Shown: positions 4,537 to 14,028, counted from the first letter of the stretch. The stretch is 14,028 bases of DNA from a virus (IMGVR_UViG_2563366825_000022:1-14028), one strand, 5' to 3'. The notes: generated from the sequence alone by a model not told the origin. Numbers and translations are program-made.

Positions 4537-4589
4537 GGGCGGCAGAGCAGTCACGGAGTAAAACTGATACCGCCAAACGTCACCAGAAA
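4537..4589 (-). ncRNA. dicF: DicF small regulatory RNA (Hfq-dependent sRNA targeting ftsZ and other mRNAs), with an intrinsic terminator tail
   Basis: Minus-strand sequence UUUCUGGUGACGUUUGGCGGUAUCAGUUUUACUCCGUGACUGCUCUGCCGCCC followed by UUUUU matches the DicF sequence from memory. It ends in a GC-rich hairpin plus U-run and lies between the ydfC-like ORF and dicB. Confidence 0.8.
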
Positions 4590-6395: not shown

Positions 6396-6458
6396 GTTTT
6401 GATTTTAAAACACAGATGGTTTTGTTTCTTGACTTTCTTTGGTTTTGATTATTAAACT
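6396..6458. promoter_or_regulatory. Immunity-region operator/promoter cluster (oR-like sites with divergent pR-like and pRM-like promoters)
   Basis: Palindrome GTTTT-N6-AAAAC at 6396-6411 abuts the cI ATG, with a related repeat GTTTTGATTATTAAAC at 6442-6457. Plus-strand TTGACT at 6430-6435 with TATTAA/ATTAAA downstream. Minus-strand TAAAAT lies 6 nt upstream of the cI ATG. Confidence 0.4.
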
Positions 6459-6486
6459 TTTGGCGTTCAGTTTTATGGAGCGACTC

Positions 6487-6729
6487 ATGAAAAAATCAGA
6501 AGTATTAGGCTATTTTGGCGGAGTTGTTAAAACAGCCGCAGCTCTAGGAACGTCAAAAACCACAGTCAGCATGTGGGGGGAAGAGGTTCCGTGGAAATGG
6601 GCGTTGCTAATTCAGGCAGTCACTGCCGGGGCGCTCAAATATGAGTTACACATACCGACGGTTGTCATTCCCGGTTCTGATCATAATCCGCCTTCTAACC
6701 AAGGGGGGATTCATGAAAATCAAGCATGA
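6487..6729 (+). CDS. Cro/YdaS-like small HTH regulator, 80 aa
   Basis: GGAG sits 6 nt upstream of ATG 6487. HTH-like segment VVKTAAALGTSKTTVSMW. Divergent from the repressor across the operator region. The ORF track's TTG start at 6439 has no SD. Confidence 0.75.
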   Translation: MKKSEVLGYFGGVVKTAAALGTSKTTVSMWGEEVPWKWALLIQAVTAGALKYELHIPTVVIPGSDHNPPSNQGGIHENQA

Positions 6730-7138
6730 ACACATCCGCATGGCGATGAATGCCTGGGCGCGTCCTGATGGCGAAAAAGTTCCGGCAGCTGGAATAACCC
6801 AGGCTTATTTTGAGTTGGGTATGACGTTTCCTGAACTGTACGACGACAGCCATCCGGAAGCCCTGGCTCGCAATACCCAGAAAATTTTCCGCTGGATAGA
6901 GAAAGACACCCCTGATGCAGTTGAAAAAATTCAGGCGTTGTTACCAGCTATCGAAAAAGCAATGCCACCTCTGCTGGTGGCCCGAATGCGCAGTCATAGC
7001 TCAGCCTATTTTCGGGAACTAGTGGAGACGCGGGAGCGACTGGTGAGAGACGCTGATGATTTTGTCGCAGTGGCAATCGCCGGTTTCAATCAGATGAACC
7101 GTGGTGGCCCGGCAGGAAATGCTGTGGCAGTGCATTGA
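6713..7138 (+). CDS. YdaT-like protein (proposed CII-type regulator, formerly annotated as a toxin), 141 aa
   Basis: SD AAGGGGGG precedes ATG 6713, which overlaps the cro-like stop by 17 nt. N-terminus MKIKHEHI… matches what I recall of YdaT. Sits in the cro-cII-O positional order. Confidence 0.6.
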   Translation: MKIKHEHIRMAMNAWARPDGEKVPAAGITQAYFELGMTFPELYDDSHPEALARNTQKIFRWIEKDTPDAVEKIQALLPAIEKAMPPLLVARMRSHSSAYFRELVETRERLVRDADDFVAVAIAGFNQMNRGGPAGNAVAVH

Positions 7139-7208
7139 GTGATAATAGCCATATCGAATCGCTTCCGGCAACTCGTGAGTAAAAGATTCGGTATCAGAAG
7201 AGGTGAGT

Positions 7209-8291
7209 ATGGCTAACGCCTGGCTCAGATTATGGCATGACATGCCAAATGACCCTAAGTGGCGAACAATTGCCAGAGTGTCAGGGCAGCCAATTGCAAC
7301 AGTGATGGCAGTGTATATCCACCTCCTGGTGAGCGCGTCACGAAATGTCACGCGAGGTCACATTGATGTCACGACAGAAGATTTGGCAAGTGCGCTCGAC
7401 GTGACAGAAGAGGTAATTGATTCAATTTTGCAGACGATGCAGGGGCGGGTACTTGATGGTGATTTAATCACTGGATGGGAAAAACGCCAGGTGCTTAAAG
7501 AGGACAACGGCAATATTTCGCAAACCGCAAAATCTCCTGCAGAGCGCAAGAGGGCGCAGCGAGAGAGGGAAAGAAAGCGGGAACAAAATGGCGATTGTCA
7601 CGGCGCGTCACGAAATGTCACGCACATGTCACGACGAGTCACGACAGATAAAGATACAGATAAAGATACAGATAAAGATACAGATCAAGAAGATCAAAAC
7701 ACTATGGTCCATGGCGTAAAAAACGCCACGAACCAGGCAGGGGATGTTCAGACCGTCAATCTTGGTCAGCCAGCAGGCACGACACCGGAAGCCGATTCAG
7801 CGTATGCGCTGAAAGCCGATTCGGGCGCTGTGCAGCAGGTGATGACCGCAAGGCCGGAGCAATCACACCAACTGCAGCAGCCCGAAGCCGATTCCGCCAT
7901 TCAGCGGGAAGCCGATCGGGTAGTCCCGGAAAACACCGGGCAGTCTGTGGGACGAGTGGATTATCCGGATGTGTTCGAACAGGTCTGGCGGGAGTACCCG
8001 TTGCGTGCCGGAGCAAACCCGAAGAAATCCGCTTTCAGTGCCTGGAAGGCCAGATTACGCGAGGGGGTGCCACCAGAAGCCATGCTGGATGGCGTGAGGC
8101 GTTACGCAAGATACTTGGCGGCTACCGGGAAAACGGGAACGGAATTTGTTCAGCGAGCGACGACGTTTTTTGGACCGGACCGGAATTTTGAGAACCCCTG
8201 GTTGCTCCCGGTAAGCGGCACGAACAACCAGCGTTGTGTGAATCATATTTCTGAACCGGATAACGAAATTCCGCCGGGCTTCAGGGGGTAA
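7209..8291 (+). CDS. Replication initiator, O-like/YdaU-type (DUF1376-like N-terminus), 360 aa, with an internal origin-like region
   Basis: GAGGTG precedes ATG 7209 (the ORF track starts at GTG 7203). N-terminal WLRLWHDMPNDPKWRTIA motif resembles the family I recall as DUF1376. Iteron clusters and a DKDT-repeat linker lie inside the gene, as lambda ori lies inside O. Confidence 0.7.
   Translation: MANAWLRLWHDMPNDPKWRTIARVSGQPIATVMAVYIHLLVSASRNVTRGHIDVTTEDLASALDVTEEVIDSILQTMQGRVLDGDLITGWEKRQVLKEDNGNISQTAKSPAERKRAQRERERKREQNGDCHGASRNVTHMSRRVTTDKDTDKDTDKDTDQEDQNTMVHGVKNATNQAGDVQTVNLGQPAGTTPEADSAYALKADSGAVQQVMTARPEQSHQLQQPEADSAIQREADRVVPENTGQSVGRVDYPDVFEQVWREYPLRAGANPKKSAFSAWKARLREGVPPEAMLDGVRRYARYLAATGKTGTEFVQRATTFFGPDRNFENPWLLPVSGTNNQRCVNHISEPDNEIPPGFRG
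7337..7373. repeat. Iteron-like cluster 1: four GTCACG/GTCACA hexamers at 10-11 bp phasing
   Basis: Hexamers at 7337, 7347, 7357 and 7368. The surrounding 21-nt string GCGCGTCACGAAATGTCACGC is repeated exactly at 7603-7623. Confidence 0.6.
7597..7643. repeat. Iteron-like cluster 2: five GTCACG hexamers at 10-11 bp phasing, adjacent to an AT-rich tandem repeat (putative ori core)
   Basis: Hexamers at 7597, 7607, 7617, 7628 and 7638, followed directly by an AT-rich repeat. The layout mirrors lambda ori (iterons plus AT-rich region inside the initiator gene). Confidence 0.6.
7647..7682. repeat. 12-bp perfect tandem repeat (GATAAAGATACA) x3, encoding a DKDT-repeat linker
   Basis: Three exact copies followed by a degenerate copy (GATCAAGAAGATCAAAAC). 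AT-rich, immediately 3' of iteron cluster 2. Confidence 0.8.
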
Positions 8292-8331
8292 GTGTTAATT
8301 TCTGGTCATGAGGTAATTTTCAGGAGGGCTT

Positions 8332-8757
8332 GTGGCAAAAGTTTTTACACAAGAAGAGCGGGAAAAAATTAAAGGGCAGGTTGTTGAACTCGTACGCCAG
8401 AGTGGGCGCGAGACGTTACGACAACTGGAAGCTAAAACTGGGGCAACAAGATATCTGATGAGCGTTCTTGCCAGAGAACTGGTAGCCAGTGGCGATGTAT
8501 ACAACTCCGGCTGCGGATTATTCCCGTCTGAACAGGCGCGTAAGGACTGGCAAAATGCCCGCAAAAAACTCTCAAGGGCAAAGGTGAAGAAACCTGCAGT
8601 GGTTGATCCGGACCTTATCTGGTCGTTACCAGACGGCGAAATACGCCGCTACGACAGGCGTCTGAATATAATCTGTCGCGAGTGCCGGAAGAGCGAAGCT
8701 ATGCAGCGTGTACTGGCATTTTATCAAGGAAATGTTAGGTATTTTAGACGTTACTAG
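8332..8757 (+). CDS. Hypothetical basic protein, 141 aa, in the position normally held by the helicase loader (P/DnaC-like)
   Basis: AGGAGG lies 4 nt upstream of GTG 8332. Lys/Arg-rich with a possible HTH-like stretch (ATRYLMSVLARELVASG). I recognise no family from the sequence. Confidence 0.55.
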   Translation: MAKVFTQEEREKIKGQVVELVRQSGRETLRQLEAKTGATRYLMSVLARELVASGDVYNSGCGLFPSEQARKDWQNARKKLSRAKVKKPAVVDPDLIWSLPDGEIRRYDRRLNIICRECRKSEAMQRVLAFYQGNVRYFRRY

Positions 8758-8910
8758 ATTAAAGAGCATTAGTTCAGATGTGAATTGACATTTTCATGGC
8801 GCAGGGTAGAGCCAGCGTGGTTGTCCGCTTTGCGTCAAAACCAGATATTACCAGATTTAGACATATATTCCCGATAGCCCTGCTCTGATGCTACACTCTG
8901 TGCTATTTTC

Positions 8911-9597
8911 ATGACCCCAATAAAAATATTTATGACTATTGCTGATTTCAAACGGCCTAAATTGGAGCTCCCAAACGGGGCAAACAAACTACTACTGCAC
9001 TCTTGCTGTGCTCCATGTTCCGGTGAAGTGATGGAGGCGCTTCAGGCCTCGGGAATCGACTACACCATCTTTTTCTACAACCCGAACATTCATCCTCAGA
9101 AAGAGTATTTAATTCGTAAGGATGAAAATATTCGCTTTGCTGAACAACACGGCGTGCCGTTTATCGATGCTGATTACGACACCGACAACTGGTTTGAACG
9201 TGCCAAAGGAATGGAATGGGAGCCTGAGAGGGGGATCCGTTGTACCATGTGTTTTGACATGCGTTTTGAGCGGACAGCGTTGTACGCTGCTGAAAATGGT
9301 TTCAGTGTGATCAGCAGTTCACTGGGCATTTCGCGCTGGAAAAATATGCAGCAGGTTAACGAGTGTGGGCGGCGAGCTGTTGCGCATTATCCGGGTATGG
9401 TATACTGGGATTATAACTGGCGCAAGCAGGGCGGCTCGTCCCGTATGATTGAAATCAGCAAGCGCGAAAAATTCTATCAGCAGGAATATTGTGGCTGTGT
9501 GTATTCTCTGCGCGATACCAATCTACACCGCAAATCTCAGGGACGCCCTCTTATCAAAATTGGCCAACTCCACTACGGAAAAGAAGAGAAGGAGTGA
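8911..9597 (+). CDS. queH: QueH-like protein (DUF208; epoxyqueuosine reductase family, Fe-S), 228 aa
   Basis: N-terminal [11 protein letters not shown] motif followed by FFYNPNIHP, with further Cys pairs ([14 protein letters not shown]), fits my recollection of DUF208/QueH. No clear SD; alternative ATG at 8932. Preceded by a 150-bp intergenic region. Confidence 0.6.
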
Positions 9598-9834
9598 TTT
9601 TATGGATCACCTTTCTGATTGATTTCATATTGGCGAGGTGACGTGAGTTAAGTAGAATTGCTGCGGGTGCTTGAGGCTATCTGCCTCAGGCATGAACACC
9701 AAAAGGCAGATAGAGAAAAGCCCCAGTTAACATTACGCGTCCTGCAAGACGCTTAACATTAATCTGAGGCTCAATCCATGCTGAACACATGTAGGTTAGC
9801 CTCTTACGTGCCGAAAGGCAAGGAGAAGCAGGCT

Positions 9835-9990
9835 ATGAAGCAGCAAAAGGCGATGTTAATCGCCCTGATCGTCATCTGTTTAACCGTCATAGTGACGGCA
9901 CTGGTAACGAGGAAAGACCTCTGCGAGGTACGAATCCGAACCGGCCAGACGGAGGTCGCTGTCTTCACAGCTTACGAACCTGAGGAGTAA
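9835..9990 (+). CDS. hokD: Hok/Gef-family type I toxin (HokD/RelF-like), 51 aa
   Basis: AAGGAGAAG precedes ATG 9835. Product MKQQKAMLIALIVICLTVIVTALVTRKDLCEVRIRTGQTEVAVFTAYEPEE has the Hok transmembrane helix and conserved C-terminal region. The ORF track's in-frame extension from ATG 9778 may be a mok-like leader frame. Confidence 0.85.
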   Translation: MKQQKAMLIALIVICLTVIVTALVTRKDLCEVRIRTGQTEVAVFTAYEPEE

Positions 9991-13269: not shown

Positions 13270-14028
13270 ATGCTTAGTACTGTAAAAATATCCAGTTGTG
13301 AGTTAATCAACGCCGACTGCCTGGAATTTATCCGGTCGTTACCCGAAAATTCTGTTGACCTGATAGTCACGGACCCGCCGTACTTTAAAGTGAAGCCTGA
13401 GGGCTGGGATAACCAGTGGAAGGGCGACGATGATTACCTGAAGTGGCTGGACCAGTGTCTTGCGCAGTTCTGGCGGGTGCTGAAACCTGCCGGAAGTCTT
13501 TACCTGTTCTGTGGCCATCGCCTGGCGTCTGACATTGAAATCATGATGCGTGAACGCTTCAATGTGCTGAACCATATTATCTGGGCGAAGCCGTCCGGAC
13601 GCTGGAACGGGTGCAACAAGGAAAGCCTGAGGGCATATTTCCCCGCCACAGAGCGCATTCTGTTCGCGGAACATTATCAGGGGCCGTATCGCCCGAAAGA
13701 TGCCGGGTATGAGGCGAAGGGCAGGGCACTGAAACAGCATGTGATGGCCCCGCTGATTTCTTACTTTCGTGATGCGCGTGCTGCCCTGGGGATAACGGCA
13801 AAACAGATTGCTGATGCCACAGGAAAGAAAAACATGGTGTCGCACTGGTTCAGTGCCAGCCAGTGGCAGCTACCGGACGAAAGCGATTATCTGAAATTAC
13901 AGGCGCTGTTTGCCCGGGTGGCAGAAGATAAGCATCAGCGCGGAGAACTGGAAAAGCCACATCACCAACTGGTCAGCACATACAGTGAACTGAACCGGCA
14001 GTATACGGAACTGCAGAGTGAATATAAG
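13270..14028 (+). CDS. DNA amino-methyltransferase (beta-class N6-adenine or N4-cytosine, DPPY motif), 3'-truncated by the window end
   Basis: Hand-translated open frame from ATG 13270 to the window end (253 codons, no stop). It is absent from the ORF track because it has no stop. N-terminus …CLEFIRSLPENSVDLIVTDPPYF… then VLKPAGSLYLF. An in-frame TGA lies just upstream of the ATG. Confidence 0.8.
   Translation, partial: MLSTVKISSCELINADCLEFIRSLPENSVDLIVTDPPYFKVKPEGWDNQWKGDDDYLKWLDQCLAQFWRVLKPAGSLYLFCGHRLASDIEIMMRERFNVLNHIIWAKPSGRWNGCNKESLRAYFPATERILFAEHYQGPYRPKDAGYEAKGRALKQHVMAPLISYFRDARAALGITAKQIADATGKKNMVSHWFSASQWQLPDESDYLKLQALFARVAEDKHQRGELEKPHHQLVSTYSELNRQYTELQSEYK

Follow-up and report, generated by a model that had tools for sequence, protein, structure and literature searches.

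A DUF977/Ren-like protein behind the replication initiator of a loader-less module in a Rac-like prophage of E. coli

Introduction

What is the small basic protein that a Rac-like prophage encodes directly behind its replication initiator, in the place where a helicase loader would be expected? The question is raised by a stretch of 14,028 nucleotides (hereafter, the window), which spans the early region of a lambdoid, Rac-like E. coli prophage. A first-pass annotation of the window, made from the sequence alone, took it that in lambdoid and Rac-type modules a loader gene comes after the initiator gene. It saw a 141-aa Lys/Arg-rich protein there instead, recognised no motif in it, and left two readings: either the initiator alone recruits the host's DnaC/DnaB, or the small protein is itself an unrecognised loader or accessory factor.

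To our knowledge, Rex resistance of lambda (1980) is the sole phenotype of Ren, the lambda protein to which the 141-aa protein will be compared below. According to a recent preprint, ren lies after P, and its translation is coupled to that of O and P (bioRxiv 10.1101/2021.04.19.439022). The same preprint reports that ren- phages do poorly on Rex+ lysogens, with suppressors mapping to O and P, and that RexA and RexB both score as partners of Ren in two-hybrid assays; its authors suspect a role for Ren in replication and state, citing Weigel and Seitz 2006, that a ren gene accompanies all initiator-helicase-loader modules (bioRxiv 10.1101/2021.04.19.439022). We show herein that the gene behind the initiator is of an already known kind, the link between DUF977 and Ren being already embodied in PHROG 142, and that its place at the end of the replication module is kept with or without a loader.

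Results

The leftward genes of the window encode an integrase, an excisionase, an 823-aa exonuclease, DUF1482, DicB (with the DicF RNA), DUF1391 and a LexA-type repressor, and the rightward genes encode Cro, a YdaT/CII-like protein, a 362-aa initiator, the 141-aa protein, QueH, a hok/sok cassette, a DUF968-HNH protein, RusA and Q. These names were taken from Pfam and PHROG scans over the plausible ORFs; RusA was named solely from the RefSeq annotation of sibling prophages. The stretch from 6400 to 9000, which bears the replication module, is carried over at least 80% of its length by more than 1,200 E. coli genomes. QueH is a moron directly 3' of the replication module, and siblings have other genes there. 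Near the right end, a 168-aa minus-strand ORF lies antisense to a plus-strand DNA methyltransferase gene that, by the annotation of siblings, begins at about 13271 and extends past the window end; this ORF is probably spurious. The coordinates of the features are collected in Table 1.

Table 1. Features of the replication module and of its surroundings, in window coordinates
Feature	Position	Strand	Details
DicF sRNA	4537-4588	-	adjoins dicB
Replication initiator, replisome organizer type	7203-8291	+	362 aa from GTG; PHROG 3729, E=4e-256
Probable origin inside the initiator gene	7346-7690	+	TGTCACG iteron-like repeats, then a 12-bp A/T-rich tandem repeat
DnaT-like tail of the initiator, SGTNNQRCVNHISEPDNEIPPGFRG	8214-8288	+	15 of 25 residues match E. 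coli DnaT 155-179
Initiator-DUF977 spacer	8292-8331	+	40 nt; mini-ORF ATG AGG TAA at 8308-8316; junction alignment A3
Shine-Dalgarno sequence AGGAGG	8322-8327	+	4 nt 5' of GTG; read from the sequence
DUF977/Ren-like (LygF) CDS	8332-8757	+	GTG start, 141 aa plus stop; ORF list, translation
N-terminal winged-helix domain	8350-8586	+	residues about 7-85: H1, H2, H3, beta hairpin, H4
C-terminal signature motif	8650-8730	+	residues 107-133, common to lambda Ren
Epoxyqueuosine reductase QueH	8911-9597		Pfam, E=1e-65
Rfam sok	9665-9840		120 bits; part of a hok/sok-type toxin-antitoxin cassette
Mok/Hok ORF	9778-9990		hok/sok-type cassette
168-aa ORF	13339-13845	-	no match in any library

The ORF behind the initiator is real, and the RefSeq call in a sibling genome agrees with the CDS given in Table 1. 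The first-pass annotation had placed it at 8292-8757; the end was correct, but position 8292 is merely the first base past the initiator stop codon (8289-8291), and the reading frame opens only at the GTG at 8332. The strong AGGAGG that had been pointed out stands 4 nt before this GTG, and the description of the protein as Lys/Arg-rich is borne out: Lys and Arg make up 30 of the 141 residues (21%), the net charge is +13, and no protein of the window except RusA (10.12) slightly exceeds its pI of 10.05. A scan of 8000-9100 for promoters and terminators returned nothing above chance and gave no sign of a separate promoter. Relative to 17 other alleles, the dN/dS of the gene is 0.03-0.15, which marks it as a working gene under strong purifying selection.

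The view that the protein has no recognisable motif did not survive a profile search, since Pfam DUF977 (PF06163) matches it over its full length (residues 1-135 on profile positions 1-133 of 134), with E=9.3e-29 and 100.6 bits against a gathering cutoff of 22.1. PHROG 142, 'Ren-like exclusion protein', also matches it (E=1.1e-46, profile positions 1-113 of 116), as it does lambda Ren (E=1.6e-41, profile positions 11-110 of 116). As an independent check of homology, an alignment of DUF977 proteins without Ren (A2) was compared by hhalign with an alignment of Ren relatives without DUF977 (A4); the two were joined over 75 columns with a probability of 96.8% and E=2.1e-10, and the aligned columns spanned the HTH region as well as the C-terminal motif. 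In addition, PHROG 2391, 'DNA binding protein', matches residues 1-82 of the 141-aa protein, and the N-terminus of lambda Ren matches a MarR-type PHROG. We regard it as almost certain that the 141-aa protein belongs to the DUF977/lambda-Ren family.

Thousands of E. coli assemblies carry proteins 93-98% identical to it under the name 'DUF977 family protein', and in phage records such proteins go by 'LygF' or 'Ren-like exclusion protein'. A first homologue search returned near-identical E. coli proteins only, and the diversity was obtained from a search of 50% representatives, in which the family was small: at E<=0.001 it comprised 100 representatives, and many of these were fragments. A scan of a genome collection with the DUF977-only alignment, by a narrow search pattern, yielded 12 loci, mostly of Escherichia/Shigella. 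A search of PDB sequences with the 141-aa protein gave chance-level matches only (E>=0.36), NCBIfam and PADLOC gave no match, and no functional study was found in the literature on DUF977 and LygF. K-12 YdaW (L003:4753-5313) was considered as a DUF977 protein and rejected, as it is a DUF1627 protein and has no BLASTP similarity; ydaW-like genes occur in L005 and L006 as well.

The structure was predicted by AlphaFold2 from alignments of 17 and of 39 sequences, the latter including Ren relatives. In both runs, pLDDT was about 88-93 across residues 11-80, and the model of this part (pLDDT about 90) contains a winged-helix DNA-binding fold. Among PDB structures, Foldseek retrieved only winged helices of the MarR/GntR/ArsR/IclR/AspA types, with probabilities of 0.94-1.0 and with weak E-values of about 0.01-0.05 (best E=0.013), and across PDB and BFVD it found generic winged helices only and no loader, DnaT, DnaD or DciA fold. 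The prediction of structure, which the first-pass annotation had proposed as a check, thus returned a winged helix and nothing that resembles a loader. No Pfam transcription-factor family was reached at E<=0.01, so membership in the MarR/GntR type was not seen at the level of sequence, and by Foldseek the C-terminal half is unrelated to the dimerisation/effector domains of those families. From its predicted fold, the 141-aa protein presumably binds DNA.

The C-terminal half was modelled at low to medium pLDDT, with a helix at residues 122-132, and the deeper 39-sequence alignment left its confidence unimproved. Here lies the best-conserved part of the family, the motif Y-D-R-x-x-N-x-I-C-x-E-C-R-x-S-x-x-M-x-R-V-L-A-F-Y (residues 107-133), with a column conservation of 0.74 versus 0.37 in the putative recognition helix. 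All residues that are invariant in an alignment including lambda Ren (A1), namely N112, E117, C118, R119, S121, M124 and R126, fall within this motif, and in BLASTP 12 of 20 of its positions are identical to the C-terminus of Ren. The protein would accordingly be laid out as an N-terminal winged helix, a basic helix/linker and a conserved C-terminal motif, the last of which probably folds only against a partner; a partner-binding role of the C-terminal half is a conjecture drawn from these models.

As to the loader itself, the first-pass annotation was right that the window contains none. None of the plausible ORFs matched a loader family in Pfam or PHROG, and tblastn against the window gave no match for any of four reference loaders, namely YdaV of K-12, lambda P, a P-like and a DnaC-like phage loader. 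The 141-aa protein bears no AAA+ loader signature, having no match to IstB_IS21 or Bac_DnaA in Pfam, PHROG or NCBIfam and no GxxxxGK[ST] in its sequence; in the same searches, K-12 YdaV, used as a positive control, matches IstB_IS21 at E=9e-20. The profile of P-like loaders, PHROG 109, is likewise absent from its PHROG matches, and the loader of Rac-SA53, the corresponding positive control, matches this profile at E=2e-54.

The upstream genes were classified in 80 viral contigs that encode close relatives of the protein and in annotated phages. Two arrangements cover essentially all of the surveyed loci. In type A, the initiator is followed by a 40-nt spacer and DUF977; in type B, it is followed by a loader (DnaC-like or lambda-P-like), YdaW/DUF1627, a 15-nt spacer and DUF977. 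Where at least 2.5 kb of upstream sequence was available, a loader was present in 37 and absent in 36 of 73 loci, counts that include many near-identical E. coli prophages and do not represent phylogenetically independent events. For this family, the premise of an obligatory loader behind the initiator does not hold; about half of the related loci are loader-less. The loader and ydaW were present or absent as a pair, with one exception in each direction (L107; 1/73 surveyed loci).

In more than 80 loci, DUF977 is the last gene of the replication module, the order in the window being cro, ydaT/cII-like, initiator and DUF977. An allele 97.9% identical to that of the window (three amino acid differences) was found in eight loader-containing loci. 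In one locus (L079), the initiator is of the window's type (97% identical) and precedes a DnaC-like loader, YdaW and DUF977, and a sibling prophage that shares the backbone and the downstream QueH gene has the order initiator, P, DUF1627 and DUF977. One class of DUF977 alleles pairs with at least three different initiator types. Members that are only about 35% identical keep the slot too, two of them directly after an initiator and one after a YdaW-like gene, none of the three with a loader, while the genes 3' of DUF977 vary (QueH, a methyltransferase, a Lar-like gene and others). The DUF977 protein is a constant terminal element of replication modules, whatever the type of initiator and whether or not a loader of either type is present. 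This constancy therefore leads us to exclude the reading as an unrecognised loader, and because alleles of 97.9% identity sit behind genuine loaders, the protein does not act as a substitute for one; we consider it very probable that the 141-aa protein is not a helicase loader. That DUF977 does not co-vary with the initiator type also argues against a tight partnership with any one initiator.

Loader-less modules are found in complete phage genomes as well, namely those of mEp460_ev081, Tritos and HannyBb. The full 45.9-kb record of mEp460_ev081 has no annotated loader or helicase, and Tritos carries the initiator type of the window. Both the lytic and the lysogenic cycles of mEp460 have been confirmed experimentally (PMC9836094).

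The 40-nt spacer is kept in all loader-less modules, across three initiator types. When the junctions were aligned (A3), its 5' part resembled the junction between the initiator stop and the loader start of loader-containing loci, and its 3' part resembled their junction between the ydaW stop and the DUF977 leader. The spacer may be a scar left by the in-frame deletion of the loader and ydaW together.

The initiator matches PHROG 3729, 'replication initiation protein', and is named 'phage replisome organizer' in RefSeq. Its C-terminal half matches both PHROG 1701, 'DnaD-like helicase loader', and PHROG 9327, 'primosomal protein', and it ends in a tail that is 60% identical to the last 25 residues of DnaT, with the shared pattern ...SEPD.xIPPGFRG. 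The PDB sequence matches of this tail are DnaT chains (6aep, 2ru8 and 9zbt_D); the NCBIfam DnaT match of the initiator is weak. A DnaT-like tail is present in 38/38 loader-less loci and in 28/28 loci with a DnaC-like loader, and in none of the eight loci with a P-like loader, the initiators of which have a different C-terminus. Three distant loader-less loci likewise end in ...P-x-GFRG. In the host, dnaT lies directly 5' of dnaC, and K-12 Rac YdaU, which bears the same DnaT-like tail, is followed by YdaV, a protein 50% identical to DnaC.

Residues 1-157 of the initiator are 86% identical to those of another initiator (L007:1753-2796), the neighbour of which is a P-like loader, and the C-terminal halves of the two are unrelated. 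Since so similar an N-terminal part is joined to unrelated C-terminal halves, the initiators are domain mosaics, in which the C-terminal half tracks the loader type. The distribution of the DnaT-like tail suggests that it may be a handle for DnaC-type loaders.

A probable replication origin, as judged from its repeats, lies inside the initiator gene. Six of the eight TGTCACG matches of the window fall at 7346-7633 (1.5 would be expected in the whole window), in two clusters at 7346-7406 and 7596-7633. TRF reports a repeat of period 10 in five copies at 7596-7646, and a 12-bp unit, ACAGATAAAGAT, in 3.9 copies at 7644-7690; the latter encodes the DKDT repeats of the initiator.

Discussion

Taken together, we think it rather probable that the 141-aa protein is a Ren-family accessory that closes the replication operon and does not load DnaB, and that the phage would reach host DnaC-DnaB through its initiator. 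The protein would be translated from the same early rightward transcript as the initiator. Judging by its homology with lambda Ren, it would be a dispensable accessory of initiator-dependent phage replication, which it would modulate or shield, for instance when a resident prophage exerts Rex-type exclusion. The conserved C-terminal motif may contact a partner common to all these phages. Loading of the helicase would most likely be carried out by host DnaC-DnaB, recruited via the C-terminal half of the initiator and its DnaT-like tail.

Of the two readings left by the first-pass annotation, the hidden loader has to be given up, and recruitment of host DnaC/DnaB by the initiator alone is the better supported one, in view of the loader-less state of about half of the related loci, its occurrence in complete phages and the DnaT-like tail in every loader-less locus. 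We infer, rather than conclude, that tail-bearing C-terminal halves engage loaders of the DnaC type and that host DnaC-DnaB serves the loader-less modules, because the loci are phylogenetically non-independent and because the literature on DnaT, as far as we found, describes no function for its extreme C-terminal tail.

That the 141-aa protein works by a Ren-like mechanism is itself only a tentative idea, drawn from the analogy with lambda. Outside the C-terminal motif its identity to lambda Ren is about 26%, and the phenotype of Ren may not transfer to DUF977; the window contains no rexAB-like genes, and in most hosts Rex-type exclusion may play no part. In lambda, Ren is reported to be dispensable for P-lethality and replicative killing (PMC3640518), and its yeast two-hybrid partners are single-vector, low-confidence matches (PMC3224144).

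Several other explanations have to be weighed against a Ren-family accessory. A stand-alone winged-helix transcription regulator of delayed-early, moron or host genes, unlinked to replication, would agree with an N-terminal domain that is structurally nearest the DNA-binding domains of MarR, GntR, ArsR and IclR, with the PHROG 2391 match at residues 1-82, with the MarR-type PHROG matched by the N-terminus of Ren, and with a pI of 10. A regulator would hardly be expected, however, to keep its recognition helix so much less well (0.37) than a C-terminal motif outside the HTH (0.74), or to stay linked to the replication module while the genes downstream differ between phages, and no Pfam transcription-factor family reaches threshold; we consider this explanation unlikely. 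Alternatively, in line with the accessory factor raised by the first-pass annotation, the protein might serve loader-less initiation specifically, binding the origin, the initiator or DnaB-DnaC via its C-terminal motif and aiding the capture of the helicase and its loader. The gene does stand directly after the initiator with a strong Shine-Dalgarno sequence, its product is basic and has a winged helix, and the motif is the best-conserved part and yet is modelled at low confidence alone, as a docking element would be. As the motif is common to modules with unrelated initiators and loaders, a shared host target is plausible, and the Court laboratory calls Ren 'likely involved in DNA replication' (bioRxiv 10.1101/2021.04.19.439022). 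Near-identical alleles are nonetheless equally present in loader-bearing modules, which leaves no tie to the loader-less state, and the yeast two-hybrid map of lambda contains no contact of Ren with O or P (PMC3224144). Such a specialised role appears distinctly improbable from the occurrence of these alleles. The replication of lambda ren mutants also counts against it.

What spoke for an unrecognised loader in place of P or DnaC was the slot right after the initiator in a window without a loader. The protein shows no P-loop or AAA+ features, however, and is unlike lambda P, DnaC/IstB, DnaI, DciA and DnaT in Pfam, PHROG, NCBIfam, PDB and Foldseek searches; its homologue Ren coexists with P in lambda; and in about half of the related loci the protein itself coexists with DnaC-like or P-like loaders, as alleles no more than three residues apart. 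The first-pass annotation had named a confident match to a known unrelated family as evidence against a loader, and the DUF977/Ren winged helix, without ATPase or lambda-P-like features, is such a match. A hidden loader is in our estimate very improbable. Finally, since Rac-like prophages are often defective, and the integrase of sibling L001 is frameshifted, the gene might be a decaying, functionless remnant. Against this stand its intact ORF, the low dN/dS over 17 alleles, its presence in complete phage genomes and the retention of the 6400-9000 stretch in more than 1,200 E. coli genomes, and we give decay almost no weight.

The finding as such matters little, as the family is annotated and widespread in E. 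coli prophages. Its wider meaning lies in the Ren/DUF977 proteins as a conserved third component of lambdoid replication modules, and in a rule seen in the loci examined: where the initiator ends in a DnaT-like PPGFRG tail, its partner is a DnaC paralogue or there is no loader at all, and where the C-terminal half is of another kind, the partner is a P-like loader. If confirmed, the rule would tell how loader-less temperate phages hijack host DnaC, and it could hint at the role of the extreme C-terminus of DnaT. One may speculate further, as a long shot, that the Ren/DUF977 C-terminal motif is a docking peptide for a shared replication component (host DnaB-DnaC, or a membrane-associated exclusion/replication factor), that the Ren family comprises general modulators of helicase recruitment, and that in loader-less modules the motif might cooperate with the DnaT-like tail. 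If true, this would be the first mechanism for Ren, more than 40 years after its discovery.

Among known proteins, lambda Ren (96 aa, directly after P) is the counterpart of the Ren-family accessory described here. The two share PHROG 142 and profile-profile homology (96.8%), the two-part layout of an HTH/winged-helix N-terminus and a C-terminal motif (N-x-[IV]-[CF]-x-E-C-R-x-S-x-x-M-x-R-V-L-A-[FV]-Y in common), and the last place in the replication operon, the order in lambda being cro-cII-O-P-ren. The protein of the window is longer, however, at 141 aa, with about 26% identity overall, and relative to Ren, DUF977 gains a helix at the N-terminus, a wing segment G-x-F-P-S-E and about 40 residues of basic linker. 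Whereas lambda P and ren overlap by 4 nt and are translationally coupled, a 40-nt spacer and an AGGAGG of its own precede the gene here, so that no such overlap exists; lambda has the P loader and the module of the window has none. Resistance to Rex exclusion and interaction with RexA/RexB are known from the literature for lambda Ren only. With the Pfam DUF977 or 'LygF' proteins of Escherichia, Shigella and Salmonella prophages, of which it is a full-length member, the window protein shows no material difference.

YdaW/DUF1627 of Rac-type modules is likewise a small winged-helix protein at the end of the replication module, and in loader-containing modules its gene lies directly 5' of DUF977; its second winged helix is weakly similar to PHROG 142. 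It differs in having two HTH regions, another C-terminus and no BLASTP similarity, and is absent from the window. With the lambda P and DnaC/IstB-type loaders (the latter represented by YdaV of K-12 Rac), the 141-aa protein has only the position after the initiator in common, and shares no sequence, motif or fold similarity. At the level of the module, the 2006 classification by Weigel and Seitz reportedly includes loader-less 'initiator-solo' replication modules, and the module of the window similarly has an initiator gene with a probable origin inside it and lacks both a phage loader and a phage helicase. This likeness is one of the module and not of the 141-aa protein, and the initiator here adds to it a DnaT-like tail.
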